From NCBI GenBank assembly GCA_046482545.1, contig JAWOEX010000010.1:128001-192000 (forward strand): a stretch of 64,000 nucleotides of DNA, written 5' to 3'. The notes below the pieces were generated by a model. That model ran no database searches. It saw only the letters and a program-made list of their open reading frames with translations, and was not told where the DNA came from. Below are positions 18,056 through 64,000 of this stretch, in pieces. Origin of the DNA: Candidatus Thorarchaeota archaeon (GTDB lineage Archaea > Asgardarchaeota > Thorarchaeia > Thorarchaeales > Thorarchaeaceae). Every line of letters begins with the position of its first letter. The stretch's first letter is position 1. The translations under genes were made by a program, and so were the position numbers.

Positions 18056-18090
18056 GATAACCCGTTTCTTACAGTTGGGTGAACTCAACT
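18056..18090 (-). repeat. Isolated 3' terminus of the dispersed structured repeat
   Basis: GATAACCCGTTTCTTACAGTTG identical to 53320-53341; AGTTG/CAACT hairpin retained. Confidence 0.85.
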
Positions 18091-46296: not shown

Positions 46297-47053
46297 GTGT
46301 GGAATAGTGACCAAAGGTACAAGATTTCTGGGAAGATTTCCTGTTAGATTCCATATCAAGTCTAATCAGTTAGCAAGAATGGAGTAATTGCCCCATTTCT
46401 TGTTTTCGAATAGTTATCTTTGCATAATCTTGGCTAATCTACCAGTCAATTCTAGTCGACAGTCCACATCTGGCCCGATAGTGAATCCTTGAGGTTACAT
46501 GGCATATACTGCTGGCTTTGTTGAAGAGGTGTCCTCTTTCTTGACCACCTAGTCAAACATTTTCGCTATGATGTCCATTTTCACAGATTTATTCTAATGC
46601 AATCGCCTTGTGAAGGTGGCAACTGGTGAATTCGTATACAAGAATATCTGAAGCGTTCTCATAGTTTCCCGCTGCAATTCCTGCAATTTGTATGGCCTTG
46701 GCAAGCATTGACTAAACGGATATTTCATTGTAATCCGTCAGGTCCCCTGATCCTATGTTACCTGCTCTAGGAGAGCCAATAGTCCGTTTTTCGGTCAGCT
46801 GATTCCCTCCAAAATAGCACTATGTACACCCGTACATAGTACACCAATCCAAAATAATCCACTCTGTGCTCTCTAAATAATGAACGAAAATAGCAATTAG
46901 CCAGTCTTGAAAAGCCACCGCTCTTCCATGAGAATACAGGGAATTGAATCCACAACATCGACAGTATTGCTCAGCGTACGCGTTTCATTATGAATAACGG
47001 ACGAAACCTAAGGTTTCTTATCCAAAGAGACACTTTCCGGCTTCTTTGTTGAT

Positions 47054-47216
47054 GACAGAAGCAGGAAGCCAGAAGAGATACTCTCTTGATAAACATGTAC
47101 AAAGCCTCTGGTAACTCAAGGAGCAAGGGCACCCTTGAGGGCAGCGACCCTAGCACGGGAAGGGTGGAACATAGAAATTCTCCAATTTGCTTTCACTCAA
47201 GTATAATGAATAGGTC
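47054..47216 (+). repeat. Degenerate partial copy (3' third) of the structured repeat
   Basis: GACAG..AGGAAGCCAG..ACAAAGCCTCTG..CTCAAGG..GGGAAGGGTGGAACA..TTCACTCAA, colinear with the 53.3-54.4 kb units. Confidence 0.75.
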
Positions 47217-47240: not shown

Positions 47241-48275
47241 TTGTTTGTTGAACGTGCGAAGCTTCAACAACTAGGAGCGTGTAGCTACATAGGTTCCGAT
47301 ATACCCAGTAAGTCTGATAAAATAGCTAAGCGGCTGGGAAGACGAAGTCAACCGGAATCTTTGGTGAGTGGTTGCCCCTGTTACAAAGAGTTTGGTGATG
47401 AGAGAGTTTGTTTAAACAACGATGATGTAGTTCAAATCAATCCCATCTCAGTTGCCACCTCATTTTTCCCCAGTATTGATTCATTCGAAAACTTGCAAGA
47501 CCTCAAGAGCGACAAAGATAACGTTTGCTACTTGCTGGTATACTTGGATGAGGACAAAGACAAAGCATATTGTGTCAGCCAAGGAAAGAAACTCGTAATC
47601 AATGGAAATGATGTTCGTGCAGATGATCTTCGAGATGCACTTAGATTCGTTAATCTAGGCAGGAAATCCACAGATGGGGAAATATGTTCAACCTGTATGT
47701 ACAAGTATCTCATCACGCTTGGAGATGTATTTGAGGATGTACTATCCGAAGATGAACGAACAGAAATCATTGCAGACTATATCGAGGATATAGCCAATAG
47801 AATGGCACAAGACATGACTGGTGGAGATTTGGAGGGGCAAGAAACTGCGGATCAGGAGGAGTTCATCCAGATGCGAATTACGCAACTGATGGAACAGAGG
47901 GCAGACTGGGAAGAGTTGATTCGTAAGAAAAGATCTGAGGGAGCAGATGAAAAGCAAATTCGCCTCTTGGATAATTACAGACGGCTGAACAGGCTGGAAG
48001 CGACGTTCCTTTCTCAAGTGCATACCATGATTGGAACTGAAATCACTACCCTCGCACTGAATGCCCTTCGCATGATGATAGCAGTGGCAAAAGAGACAAC
48101 TGAAACATGTAATAGAATACGCAGTCTGACACACACTCTCACGGACAGCCGCAAGATGCCTGCTGATTTCGATCATCTACTGGAACCACATGCTGAGAGG
48201 AGAAGAAAAATCGAACACAGATTCGACAGGGTCGAACGGGTGCTGAGTGAGATAGAAATCCAGCAACATCGTTGA
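47241..48275 (+). CDS. Cys-rich hypothetical protein, paralog 1 (start uncertain)
   Basis: GCPCYK.FGDE..C, DN.CY, YCVSQG, EICS.C.YK shared with the next ORF. Confidence 0.85.
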   Translation: MFVERAKLQQLGACSYIGSDIPSKSDKIAKRLGRRSQPESLVSGCPCYKEFGDERVCLNNDDVVQINPISVATSFFPSIDSFENLQDLKSDKDNVCYLLVYLDEDKDKAYCVSQGKKLVINGNDVRADDLRDALRFVNLGRKSTDGEICSTCMYKYLITLGDVFEDVLSEDERTEIIADYIEDIANRMAQDMTGGDLEGQETADQEEFIQMRITQLMEQRADWEELIRKKRSEGADEKQIRLLDNYRRLNRLEATFLSQVHTMIGTEITTLALNALRMMIAVAKETTETCNRIRSLTHTLTDSRKMPADFDHLLEPHAERRRKIEHRFDRVERVLSEIEIQQHR

Positions 48276-48360
48276 GGTTTGTCCATCAGGAAACAGAATA
48301 TATTATACGGATGGATAGTGTACAATTAGATGAATCTTAGATTATTAGGGGCAGTATAGG

Positions 48361-49329
48361 GTGGATTCCAAGCTAATCGTCGGAAAAAACAAGAAAGAGA
48401 TTCAGGTTGTAAGAGGATGTCCGTGCTACAAGGTGTTCGGCGATGAGAATCTCTGCGTCAACGACGACGAAATTCTAGAAGTTGAGGTAATTGAAGTCGA
48501 TCCTTCACTTTTCTCCTTGCATGAAACGAAAGAAGACATGGAAGAAGAAATCGTCCACGAAGACAACATATGCTACTGCTCAGTCTACATGAATCCGGAG
48601 GATAACCGAGTTTACTGTGTATCCCAAGGCTGGCCACTACGGATACACGGAAGGTATGTACCTGCTGATGAGATGAGAGACGCTTTTCGATTTCTCTCCA
48701 CAAAAGACCTTTCAGCCCCGGCAGAAATCTGCTCAGAATGTATCTACAAGTTTCTGTTGACACTGAGTGATACCTATTCAACCGATATGACGAAGCAAGA
48801 ACAGACTGATGAAATCAAGGGATATGTAGACAAGTTCTCGCTTATGATAGCTGTCAAGCTCAGCCAAATGGAAGGTATGCAAACCATCGGCACAGAAGAT
48901 GATATCGATAAAGGCGTGGATTACCTCGCATTTTTACGGGGGTATCTTGTACAGCTCCTCGAACAGCAGCAATTCTGGAGCGAATTGCGAACCTCTTTGA
49001 AGGATGAAGGGACCGAAGAATGGTTGCTGGATTTGGTTGAGAAACGAGAAAAACTGGCACGGCTTGAGTATCAGTTCTACTCGCAGACTTTACAGCTTCA
49101 TCATATCGATGATTTCAATCTACTGGTTCGAAACTTAGAATTCATTCTCAAGACTGCTGGAGGTATCCTTAGCCTGAATCAGGAAATCCATTCGAAAATC
49201 AGATCCGAAGAGTTTCTTGAGAAGGCAGAAGGTGACAAACGACTTGACAAACTCGTAGCTTACGGGGAAAAATGCAGGGCGATTGAGCACAACTTTGCCA
49301 ATATACTTCAGATATTGAACAAGCTGTGA
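48361..49329 (+). CDS. Cys-rich hypothetical protein, paralog 2
   Basis: Same Cys pattern; helical C-terminal half. Confidence 0.88.
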   Translation: MDSKLIVGKNKKEIQVVRGCPCYKVFGDENLCVNDDEILEVEVIEVDPSLFSLHETKEDMEEEIVHEDNICYCSVYMNPEDNRVYCVSQGWPLRIHGRYVPADEMRDAFRFLSTKDLSAPAEICSECIYKFLLTLSDTYSTDMTKQEQTDEIKGYVDKFSLMIAVKLSQMEGMQTIGTEDDIDKGVDYLAFLRGYLVQLLEQQQFWSELRTSLKDEGTEEWLLDLVEKREKLARLEYQFYSQTLQLHHIDDFNLLVRNLEFILKTAGGILSLNQEIHSKIRSEEFLEKAEGDKRLDKLVAYGEKCRAIEHNFANILQILNKL

Positions 49330-53088: not shown

Positions 53089-53319
53089 ACCTGCCTTTAG
53101 CACAGACTAACCCTTTAAGTTGATGTTTTGCAGGTTAGAATCGCCATGACTCTAAGTGGTGACGAACGAACCAGATACTCGAGAATGCTGCCACTGAGGC
53201 ATTTTGATGAGAGCAAGATGGAGTCCATCAAAGAAACAAAGAGTTGCAGTGGCTGGCACTGGCGGTTTGGGATGCAACTTGCGCAGACTGCTTACTTCGT
53301 TCGGATTCGGACATATCAA

Positions 53320-53759
53320 GATAACCCGTTTCTTACAGTTGAGTGAGTGGATCCAACTGAGGAAACTTCTGTGTTCCACCCTTCCCCTGCCAGCGTCACC
53401 GCCCCCAAGGTACCCGTAGGCCCTCGGGTCAGCAGGGGCTTTGTCCACGTTCACCGGAATAGGATTCCTCCCGCGGTCCTGGCTTCCTTCTCCTGTCGAA
53501 CTCCGGTACATCACTCCCGGCGACAGCGAGTTCTTCCACAGTTCTTACCACGGCGTGGTCATGATCACCCACCTCAGCCTTGTCGCCGTAGCTGAGGAGA
53601 TCCATCTGGACATGGTGAACAGCCGCGGACTCTCCAGGGTCTGATGGGACCCCTCGTTCGGAGAGTAAGGACTTCTGCTTAGAAGACGACGTCTTCCTCA
53701 CAGCCTTCGGGGCTGGGCGCTTCTCCCGTGGGGGAGTGGCTCACCGCCCTAGTCCTACT
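53320..53759 (-). ncRNA. Candidate ~440-nt structured RNA, copy A
   Basis: TTTATTAG box 22 nt before AGTAGGAC; many stems shared with copy B through compensatory changes. Confidence 0.6.
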
Positions 53760-54005
53760 AGACCGGACTCCCGTACTAGGCCTAATAAACTCCCCTGCTT
53801 GAGAGAGAATCGTTACAGGAAATCTTACAGATATTTTACACTTTTCCACTCGGATTTTTTACGATTTTTGTAAAATTTACCCTTTCAAGACCTTTGTAAA
53901 TCGTACAGAATCCTAAATAAATCAGCACAGTAGAGTGTAAGATTTCATCGAGCCCTTTTCGTGACCAAAAAGGAGTTTAGTAGACAGACAACCGTACTGG
54001 ATATC

Positions 54006-54441
54006 AGTAGGACCAGGCAAGTGGGCTAGCGCAGAAGCGCGAAGCACGCGGCTGAAAGATGTGAGGAAGTCCTGTGATTCTAAGCGGAAGTCCTTACTCT
54101 CCACAAAGAGAGCTTCATCGAACTCAGGAGGGTCCGCGGCTGTTCACCATGTCCAGATGGACCTTCTCATCTACGCTGACAAGGCTTATTCGGGTGATTG
54201 TGACCACGCCATGGTAAGAACTGTGGGAAACGTCGTTATCGCCGGAGTGACGACCCGGGATGACGACGGGAGGATGAAGCCAAGACCGCAGGAGGAATCC
54301 CAATCCGATGAACGTGTGCAAAGCCTCTGCTTGCTCAAGGACTGAGAAGTATCTTGGGGCGGCGACCTTAGCAGGGGAAGGATGGAACACAGGAGTTTCC
54401 TCAGTTGGATTCACTCACTCAACTGTAAGAAACATGTTATC
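54006..54441 (+). ncRNA. Candidate ~436-nt structured RNA, copy B
   Basis: TTTAGTAG box (53976-53983) 22 nt before AGTAGGAC; same stems as copy A. Confidence 0.6.
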
Positions 54442-54622
54442 CGGAGCTACTTCGAATCGTGACTGGAATTCAAGTGCGTGAAGCGGTACTGCTCGCTACA
54501 TCTCGCAAGACCGAGCATATGGAGGTGCTGATGACAGTAGACTTGACTTCGCTAACTGTTGATAGGTTTGAAATTGCAAAGGATGCCAACTGCAAGATTT
54601 GCTCTTGATTAAAGATACAATC

Positions 54623-62454: not shown

Positions 62455-62784
62455 ACGAGCCTTTTCAGCATCCAAAACTGGGAACTCAATCAGCAGTTTC
62501 CCGTCTATCCAGAAGACAGCACTCGCTGGAGAGCATGGTTTATCAAATTCGATTATGGAGAAACACTGCTGGGATTGGATGATACGCGGCTGAGCATCTA
62601 TGATGTCGGCCACCTGATCGAGAGCAGGCAGCTCTATGATAGTGACACCAAGAAGTTGCATTCAATGTATGTCATCTTGAACAAGGTCAAGGACTTCTCT
62701 ACCCAGGCTGACCTCTCGGAGTTCCCGCTGTTTGCAGAAAAACTCAGAAAGAGCACGGAGACCAAGCAACCCTCAAACAGCTGA
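62455..62784 (+). pseudogene. Start-less ORF fragment of unknown origin
   Basis: 109 open codons follow directly on a TGA at 62452; antisense to both neighbours. Confidence 0.35.
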
Positions 62785-62920
62785 CCGGGTGGTGGGCGTG
62801 AATGCCGGAGATCTGTTAAGCTCATGACACAACCTACAATCCCAACGTAGGTTGCTAGATTCCTGACATACGGGTAGGATATCAACTTGGTGTATGCAGG
62901 ATGGTCTATCTCCCACATGA

Positions 62921-62978
62921 GGTAACAGGAAATCTTACACTTCTATGCGCCGATTTATTTAGGATTCTGTAAGATTTC
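62921..62978. repeat. GAAATCTTACA..TGTAAGATTTC inverted repeat, homologous to the spacer of the 53-54 kb element
   Basis: 62930-62977 is a near reverse complement of 53898-53945; 11-bp perfect IR at 62929-62939/62968-62978. Confidence 0.8.
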
Positions 62979-62981
62979 CAC

Positions 62982-64000
62982 CTATCCAGAAATATGAGTA
63001 AGCTTCTCTCGCCATTCCCTGATCTCGCTATTCAGCCGAGCGATGTCATTCTCATTAAGAGTGGCTGTAGGGGGATACGATTTGAGCTCATTGGCTCGTT
63101 TGCCCAGTTTAAAAAGAATCGGAGTGTGAGTGTCGATAATGGTGGTGAGTTGATCTCTCACAGATTCTATTGCCACAGCCATTTCGTTGGCCTCGACATC
63201 AGCATCTACCATATCGAGCAGGTATTGCATCAGCGAATCAAGATCCTCTGGCATATCACTCTTGGGTGCAGCAGTTGTCTCTTCTTCAGTCTCCTTTTCA
63301 GAAATGGCTCTCGGTTTCATCTCTTGTCGTGTAATCGAGGTGCCCAGTTTATCGGTTGTTTCTTCAACCAGAGTAATGGCATTATCAACCTTCTCTAGGG
63401 TTTTATTGTATTTACGCTCAATATCATCCAGCTGTCTAACAATGATGCCGACAATTTCTTTTGTCTCAACAATAGAGGAATTCAGATCATGAAAGCGATC
63501 CTCGAGGGCCGATAGGTCCGCTATGTAGGTTTCAATGCTGTCAATCTTCTTCTGAATTACGTCAGATTCACTAGAATCCTTAATCTTGTTCATTGTATTA
63601 CCTAGACCGACAACTGAACCAAGAATATCCTCTATCTTCTGCCCGAAATCCTCCCTCCCGTCTTCAAGTCTTGAATCGATGGATTCCAGCTTGTCTACAA
63701 CATCCTCATCACTGGTTAGTTCTGAGAGCTGGTCTTGCAGGTCGCCAAACTTCTTGTCGGACACATTCTTTGAAGAATCGATTTCATCTTTGACATCTGT
63801 TAGCGAAAGCAGAATCTCATCAAGCTTCTTGAAAATGACTTCGGTCTCTTTCGATTCGTTCATTTCAGTAAGAAGCTCGTTCATCTTGCCAATTGTTTCA
63901 TTTGTTTCATCAAGTGTGGAAAGAGAGGAAAGATCCCCCCTTATGTCATCCATCTTTGAATTCAGAGAGTCGTGATGTTTTTCGAAATAGTCATTTATCT
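62982..64000 (-). CDS. Long coiled-coil protein (5' end beyond window)
   Basis: Frame stays open from the ATG at 63953 to the window edge; heptad-rich; C-terminal YPPTATLNENDIA domain. Confidence 0.85.
   Translation of the reverse strand, partial: INDYFEKHHDSLNSKMDDIRGDLSSLSTLDETNETIGKMNELLTEMNESKETEVIFKKLDEILLSLTDVKDEIDSSKNVSDKKFGDLQDQLSELTSDEDVVDKLESIDSRLEDGREDFGQKIEDILGSVVGLGNTMNKIKDSSESDVIQKKIDSIETYIADLSALEDRFHDLNSSIVETKEIVGIIVRQLDDIERKYNKTLEKVDNAITLVEETTDKLGTSITRQEMKPRAISEKETEEETTAAPKSDMPEDLDSLMQYLLDMVDADVEANEMAVAIESVRDQLTTIIDTHTPILFKLGKRANELKSYPPTATLNENDIARLNSEIREWREKLTHISG

Follow-up and report, generated by a model that had tools for sequence, protein, structure and literature searches.

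Head-to-head gene-less elements interrupting thiF in a Thorarchaeota archaeon are very likely derivatives of aCas1-TnpB elements

In Asgard archaea, tnpB can lie beside a gene for a divergent Cas1 homolog (aCas1), which has been proposed as a transposase in the main text of Altae-Tran et al. (2023, PMC10691335); the same text suggests that a variable region downstream of tnpB is a hypervariable guide. We found no test of the aCas1 proposal in the literature that we examined. In TnpB systems generally, the omega RNA overlaps the 3′ end of tnpB and reaches the right end of the element, with a guide predicted from the 3′ flank (PMC12558985), and the usual role of TnpB is retention (PMC10055086). 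Casposases make 15-bp target duplications from terminal inverted repeat (TIR) ends (PMC9939771), and a donor-carried 2-nt core is a feature of IS607 serine recombinases (10.1101/2023.11.20.567912). Gene-less PATE-like elements and the aCas1-TnpB system are already known, and the parent of the elements described below has been catalogued. Here we establish the composition, copy number, and RNA fold of a family of gene-less elements, the 6-bp TCNNGA duplication at their ends, the inheritance of its central NN, and the Cas1 fold of a giant protein encoded by the parent. New are the architecture of the ends and target site, the inheritance of the core, a long scaffold with covariation support, and genomic evidence on whether aCas1 transposes.

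The window (the whole stretch of 64,000 nucleotides of a Candidatus Thorarchaeota contig that was analyzed) holds two arms in head-to-head orientation, A (about 53321-53760, minus strand) and B (about 54006-54440, plus strand), which are 77.6% identical over 442 nt, far beyond chance. A preliminary description had located both arms correctly but took them for one palindromic element. The 245-bp "spacer" is not host DNA and consists of two left ends placed back to back around a single common TCAAGA (53885-53890), and the palindrome is two insertions sharing one site. Each complete copy is a gene-less element of 550 to 565 bp that comprises a left end, a TATA box, an omega RNA, and a right end. 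In element A, 53761-53884 on the minus strand is taken up by the left end, in which TTTACA is followed by three TGTAA repeats (left-end hidden Markov model [HMM], E = 1.5e-16), and by the linker, which has a TATA-like box at 53782-53789; across 40 family copies, this box is 80 to 95% conserved at positions −30 to −23. The arm itself (53322-53760, minus strand) contains TnpB C-terminal codons, the omega-RNA scaffold, and the right end, and its fold has covariation support and a minimum free energy (MFE) z score of −2.05. Element B has the same layout on the plus strand: left end and linker at 53891-54005 (HMM E = 2.9e-11; TATA-like box near 53976), followed by the arm at 54006-54439, which also includes a PIP-like QxxLxxY near 54154 and a terminal hairpin with a TTCACTCA loop.

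Two congeners (genomes G001 and G002) carry at this locus an intact 247-aa ThiF gene (PF00899; E = 1e-65). Here, both flanks are collinear with that ThiF/MoeB-family gene: a 5′ remnant at 53146-53321 on the plus strand (codons 1 to ∼58, with a +1 frameshift) and a 3′ remnant at 54440-54608 on the plus strand (the last ∼55 codons, in frame). The A-B pair replaces 406 nt of thiF between two hexamers. The first, at 53316-53321, bounds the right end of element A (TCTTGA in A's orientation) and is also present in the uninterrupted thiF of G001; the second, TCCGGA at 54440-54445, bounds the right end of element B and lies 406 nt downstream of the first in the intact gene. Judged by its sequence, the pair has destroyed a gene that is intact in two congeners. 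In the simplest history, element A would have inserted into thiF first; element B would then have entered, in the opposite direction, the copy of the hexamer that bounds A on the left; and the right end of B would have rejoined the gene 406 nt further on, deleting its middle. The guide of element A is predicted to begin in the host flank, after GGTTAT. The arrangement might also be an assembly chimera of two repeat copies, as the assembly is of the metagenome type, several contigs end in the arm repeat, and 400 bp of thiF is missing at the locus. We consider this very improbable: the arms are merely 78% alike and meet at a 6-bp site rather than a long repeat, the flanks match the same gene in two relatives, and nested insertions into other family copies recur elsewhere (contigs C41, C9, and C38).

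Other traces of the family occur in the window. A 5′-truncated, degenerate copy of the arm (the 47-kb copy of the preliminary description) lies at 47048-47216 on the plus strand (HMM E = 1.6e-19), and an isolated right-end fragment lies at 18056-18082 on the minus strand. Directly downstream of the 47-kb copy, at 47241-49329, are two tandem related Cys-rich ORFs of 344 and 322 aa. A family left end with the last ∼90 codons of a giant Cas1-like gene occupies 62506-62990 (element on the minus strand, gene coded on the plus strand; tblastn, 80% to aa 1564-1655). It had been reported that the window contained neither a transposase nor a reverse transcriptase (RT); for RT this extends to the whole genome, whereas this remnant at about 62500-62990 is that of a likely transposase gene.

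The arms had been described as an unrecognised large noncoding RNA, but they are partly of coding origin. Compared by tblastn with the intact 544-aa TnpB of this genome, arm A is 66% identical over residues 461-544 and arm B is 62% identical over residues 461-539, and the first ∼250 nt of the arms correspond to TnpB codons 461-544. Seven copies directly continue the Zn-finger/RuvC-III codons of tnpB, with matches to PF07282 and NF040570. A protein match across the arms, which the preliminary description had named, for a transposase, as grounds for rejecting its own reading, does exist but is to TnpB. Each arm thus combines a tnpB tail with a noncoding right end, which is where an omega RNA lies, and we classify the RNA as an omega RNA rather than a new class. 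A TnpB-type scaffold with a fixed 3′ end abutting variable host sequence had been among the initial suggestions, and it is borne out by 74 copies that stop at one common right-end motif and then continue into unique flanks, which marks a sharp boundary between scaffold and guide. Searches with Rfam covariance models at gathering and E-value thresholds gave no match for the arms, in line with the earlier failure to match them to RNase P, SRP, group I/II introns, or HEARO. At ∼430 nt, the RNA is roughly twice the usual omega-RNA length. The TnpB tail also contains a QxxLxxF/Y motif, which we take to resemble a putative PCNA-binding box.

In all 34 TnpB sequences, the RuvC-I aspartate, an alternative glutamate, and the RuvC-III aspartate are invariant, and the RuvC-II position is glycine. 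This glycine/alternative-glutamate pattern is described in the main text of PMC10691335 as rearranged (RIIr type), and TnpB with this arrangement is probably active. Each gene-less copy could produce an omega RNA of its own for loading into TnpB in trans, the host flank serving as the guide; whether RNAs A and B in particular are expressed and loaded we regard as evenly balanced from sequence data.

To evaluate the fold, we aligned 35 homologs (66% mean column identity), with counts that do not take relatedness into account. Compensatory changes were found in 39 of the 65 predicted pairs. In the 57 core pairs, 95.7% of cells can pair, compared to 87% in shuffled controls and 39 to 46% in slid controls, and the core pairs contain 204 compensatory cells versus at most 78 in the controls. 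A multicopy structured RNA, as originally proposed, is therefore present, with 88 HMM matches in the genome and a covarying fold. Of the seven stems drawn from the two arms, the core of stem 1 and stems 3 and 4 hold (96 to 97% paired across the 35 homologs, with 7, 15, and 53 compensatory cells, respectively). Stems 2, 5, and 7 are present as hairpins but vary in length and align poorly (36%, 71%, and 74% paired); despite this, stem 5 has 80 compensatory cells. The long-range pseudoknot (stem 6) does not hold up as a family feature: it is 57% paired across homologs, only 9 of the 42 copies in this genome can form at least six of its seven pairs, and it folds in copy B alone.

The variable region that precedes the GTTCACTCA motif is a better match for the downstream strand of its own locus than for those of other loci in base pairing (16 loci; permutation P of about 1.3e-4), which makes a terminal stem more likely than a guide. 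The internal-guide suggestion in the main text of PMC10691335 is therefore not supported; the variable region is probably a paired stem, and the guide should be the 3′ flank.

A parent element of 8.3 kb is present on contig C28 of this genome. It has the left end of this family, 1,655-aa and 224-aa ORFs on the opposite strand, tnpB, a right end, and TCAGGA on both sides. In total, four coding elements have matching hexamers at both ends (C28 and C20 of this genome, C133 of G001, and C163 of G023), and the hexamer-bounded C133 element contains the giant ORF and tnpB only. The giant gene was found in 54 of 81 genomes of the family and is divergent to tnpB in 20 of 20 loci, which were chosen for carrying both. 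The 224-aa ORF, present in some elements only, had no family or Atlas match; at L029:3067-3741 it overlaps the start of the giant gene, with an 84-bp two-copy repeat directly upstream.

The giant protein had no Pfam or NCBIfam match. A structural model of its N terminus (pLDDT, 87) gave 12 top structural matches that were all Cas1 or casposase (Z = 9.0 to 12.6), with the next, unrelated match at Z = 7.0; the Cas1 domain was detected by wide structural alignment only and was not significant by Pfam or Foldseek alone. Residues E92, H204, and D214 are invariant in 71 homologs, and their assignment as an E/H/D triad is by motif spacing only. The middle of the protein folds like RecA/KaiC (Z = 11) and also includes a Cas4-like segment (Z = 7.1) with a PD-(D/E)XK-like motif. 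A tyrosine recombinase in the C-terminal ∼650 aa was considered and found no support in Pfam, NCBIfam, PDB sequence, or Atlas searches. The parent agrees with the Asgard aCas1-TnpB loci described by Altae-Tran et al. (2023), and elements A and B are very likely derivatives of it. In each such derivative, the left end and a TATA box are fused to the final ∼430 nt of the tnpB transcript unit, in the manner of MITEs or PATEs. Taken jointly with mobilization in trans at the DNA level, this identity still appears likely, with good confidence.

A profile HMM of the arm gave its 88 matches in a genome of 3.05 Mb; 44 are near full length, and 74 share the same 3′ end. The family has thus reshaped its host genome, with the loss of thiF as the local example. 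Among 41 genomes searched, 17 had matches, namely, this one and 16 of 24 others of the same taxonomic family, with none outside it. Homologs of a linked protein carry the name Thorarchaeota in their source records. In 70 left ends from three species, an exact TCNNGA was seen in 55, located 10 to 11 nt before a CTTACA-like motif, and the right end has the mirror motif (TGTAAG) at about the same distance from its hexamer. Ten different NN occur inside TC..GA. The TTCACTCA terminal loop is kept in only 38 of 74 right ends. Two truncated copies in this genome (C2:33450-33140 and C9:195001-194721) start at an internal TCTGGA and end in TCTGGA, as if the internal site were a left end. A solo tnpB copy (C34:114443-116317) resembles the parent from the 5′ end of the leader RNA (described below) onward, and its self-guide has diverged.

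The preliminary description had offered an RNA-based mobile element as one option. Many copies are indeed 5′ truncated with an intact 3′ end, as expected of a SINE-like or intron-like retroposon, and a host noncoding RNA family unrelated to TnpB could also be imagined. We consider both very improbable, because the genome has no RT, the TnpB tail is encoded in the arms, complete copies carry a left end of the DNA type ahead of their promoter box as well as a 6-bp duplication, and several truncations are internal deletions or begin at an internal TCNNGA. Retroposition was accordingly set aside. The further suggestion, that copies are mobilized in trans, agrees with our reading.

We investigated the insertion sites using congener insertions for which this genome has the empty site. 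Empty sites have a single hexamer (L060 versus C6, 96% identity; also L074 and L072), whereas filled sites have a 6-bp TCNNGA duplication, one copy at each end. An exact search for empty sites in metagenome contigs gave no match. The NN of the left and right hexamers are the same in 30 of 39 copies (7 expected) and differ in the other 9. Nearest-neighbor elements share their NN at a frequency of 0.50 to 0.55, compared to 0.17, and this signal persists across three species when the 10 to 11 nt adjoining the hexamer are excluded (0.50 versus 0.17). The NN of the right flank also tracks left-end similarity (0.44 versus 0.13), and outside the hexamer, the left end and the right flank resemble each other weakly or not at all. 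In 52 left flanks of this genome, T never occurs three positions ahead of the hexamer (0/52; background, 29%), and the right side shows no mirror bias.

Inheritance of the NN within element lineages is what a recombination core would show and points to such a core rather than to free target duplication, with the nine copies of unlike NN counting against it. One hexamer in empty sites and two in filled sites would fit a plain target duplication equally well. Under that reading, the giant protein would act as an ordinary casposase or DDE enzyme, making a staggered attack at a preferred TCNNGA that leaves a 5- to 6-bp duplication, and the lineage signal would reflect an end-specific target preference. 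The Cas1 fold and the imperfect inverted symmetry of the ends (CTTACA versus TGTAAG, 10 to 11 nt from each hexamer) are compatible with it. As a plain duplication predicts an NN independent of lineage, and the NN tracks lineage across three species, we consider this explanation rather improbable.

If exchange is core matched, the question is which enzyme performs it. The copies would move as DNA, mobilized in trans by the giant protein with its Cas1 catalytic domain, PD-(D/E)XK nuclease, and RecA-like domain, by core-matched exchange at TCNNGA instead of free target duplication. In this 98.9% complete genome, we found no resolvase, large serine recombinase, tyrosine recombinase, IS110, or RT gene. 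Its single Y1 gene is truncated and unlinked; at L028:1474-2214, this IS200/IS605 transposase fragment is fused to unrelated sequence. The most serious competitor of the giant protein is an IS607-type serine recombinase acting in trans and lost or unassembled in this genus, which would make the giant gene cargo or assign it another job. The inherited core dinucleotide and the repeated subterminal motifs fit serine recombinase chemistry, and genes for MerR-HTH/resolvase proteins (IS607-type TnpA) adjoin the giant gene in about 14 of 28 resolvase loci of other genera. Still, PF00239 has no match in this genome, G001, or G002, all of which have many copies; the left end described here is found in none of the 28 resolvase loci, several of which have a different, GG-type end; complete hexamer-bounded elements lack a resolvase; and the IS607 target is a fixed GG (10.1101/2023.11.20.567912), compared with the ten different NN seen here. 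We therefore hold a serine recombinase to be possible but unlikely.

Since no resolvase was found in this genus and none of the 28 resolvase loci has this left end, aCas1 is favored as the mover and is our leading candidate, with moderate confidence, given that the 15-bp duplications of casposases and the IS607-like 2-nt core count against it. The loci in which IS607-type tnpA adjoins the giant Cas1-like gene fall within L136-L162 and have a different left end; at least three types of ends appear to accompany the aCas1-tnpB cassette. The gene-less copies define a minimal substrate (a left end of ∼130 bp, a right end, and a TCNNGA site), which makes the question of aCas1 directly testable. If aCas1 is the mover, a Cas1-fold enzyme exchanging a matched core would be new chemistry for the family ancestral to CRISPR adaptation; if a serine recombinase is, the copies are ordinary IS607-like miniature elements and matter much less.

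Upstream of tnpB, 31 loci have a conserved unit of ∼75 nt that ends in the right-end motif and is followed by 13 to 15 nt repeating the locus's own TATA box, located ∼95 nt upstream. The self-guide matches at a mean of 13.0 of 15 positions, compared to 9.5 across loci (0 of 100,000 permutations as high). The upstream copy, at the TATA box, is preceded by TTAAT or TTCAT, which we infer to be a motif like a target-adjacent motif (TAM) and part of which might belong to the promoter. The leader unit also contains, in 21 of 23 loci, 8 nt complementary to the terminal loop of the omega RNA, with two compensatory changes; A and B keep the terminal loop without the leader. In L085-L114, the leader mini-RNA lies ∼150 nt upstream of tnpB. 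The leader self-guide points to a putative RNA-guided self-repression, perhaps with a two-part RNA. A search of the literature for RNA-guided self-repression by TnpB yielded no report, which does not prove that none exists.

None of the left flanks at empty donor sites fits the putative TAM (TTAAT/TTCAT), so empty donor sites would not be cut, and the usual retention role of TnpB appears not to be supported for this family of mini-elements. When the guides of the copies were searched for targets in trans, about ten short nonself matches emerged, close to the number roughly estimated for chance. The gene-less copies may be largely passive passengers.

In other subfamilies (L119 in G051; L133 and L132 in G005 and G010; L123, L124, L126, L127, and L118), the right-end flank matches tRNA or 16S rRNA genes near the other end of the element, and C23:124200-124310 of this genome is listed with these loci. 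In L119 and L133, the flank matches an intron-less form, and the nearby host copy appears to be intron bearing (tRNA-Asp and 16S identified by eye). These matches could reflect RNA-guided homing or guided insertion.

Tentatively, the whole system might combine a fusion of Cas1, Cas4-like, and RecA-like parts, as the transposase of a new transposon class that recombines through a 2-nt core, matched within TCNNGA, and disperses guide-RNA-only copies by the dozen, with a TnpB that works with a two-part RNA (the long 3′ RNA, paired by its terminal loop to a short leader RNA, the 13- to 15-nt guide of which binds the TATA box of the element itself); we regard the full combination as doubtful. Independently of it, TnpB with an unusually long, well-supported omega RNA and a candidate TAM is a ready target for assays.

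The omega RNA resembles known omega RNAs (reRNAs) and archaeal sotRNAs (RF02656 and RF02657; IS200/IS605 and IS607) in overlapping the tnpB 3′ end and running to the right end. It differs from them in its length and its lack of an Rfam match, and, unlike in known omega RNAs, its terminal loop has an 8-nt complement in a separate leader RNA of the parent. As in casposons (Cas1-solo), a Cas1-fold integrase with an E/H/D triad is the only candidate mover, and tRNA-linked loci likewise occur among distant relatives of the element. Casposons, however, have PolB, TIRs, and a duplication of ∼15 bp, whereas the ORF lists of complete elements here contain no additional gene the size of PolB, the duplication is 6 bp, and the ends have weak terminal symmetry. 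Unlike casposon Cas1, the giant protein has no matched N-terminal beta domain, is fused to nuclease and RecA-like domains, and is accompanied by tnpB.

With IS607/CboIStron (10.1101/2023.11.20.567912), the elements share a donor-carried core dinucleotide, repeated subterminal motifs, and tnpB at the right end. In IS607 the core is a fixed GG and the TAM equals the target motif, whereas here NN varies in TC..GA and the putative TAM is unlike the insertion flank; IS607 has a serine-recombinase tnpA, and no resolvase is linked to the ends described here. The PATE-like derivatives of IS200/IS605 (Meers et al., PMC10055086) retain both ends and the omega RNA, are gene-less, and depend on transposase and TnpB in trans, as here. 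In contrast to PATEs and IS200/IS605, which rely on a Y1 transposase and make no target duplication, there is no Y1/HUH system, the duplication is 6 bp, and the parent encodes a Cas1-like protein. The closest relatives are the aCas1-TnpB loci (Cas1H-Asgard-1/-2, PMC10691335), which, in the account given in the main text of that report, also have an Asgard host, have tnpB beside a divergent Cas1 homolog, and carry the same GTTCACTCA motif beyond a variable region that follows tnpB. That main text gives no end sequence, target site, or nonautonomous copies; the family described here adds TCNNGA ends, an inherited NN, and dozens of gene-less copies.
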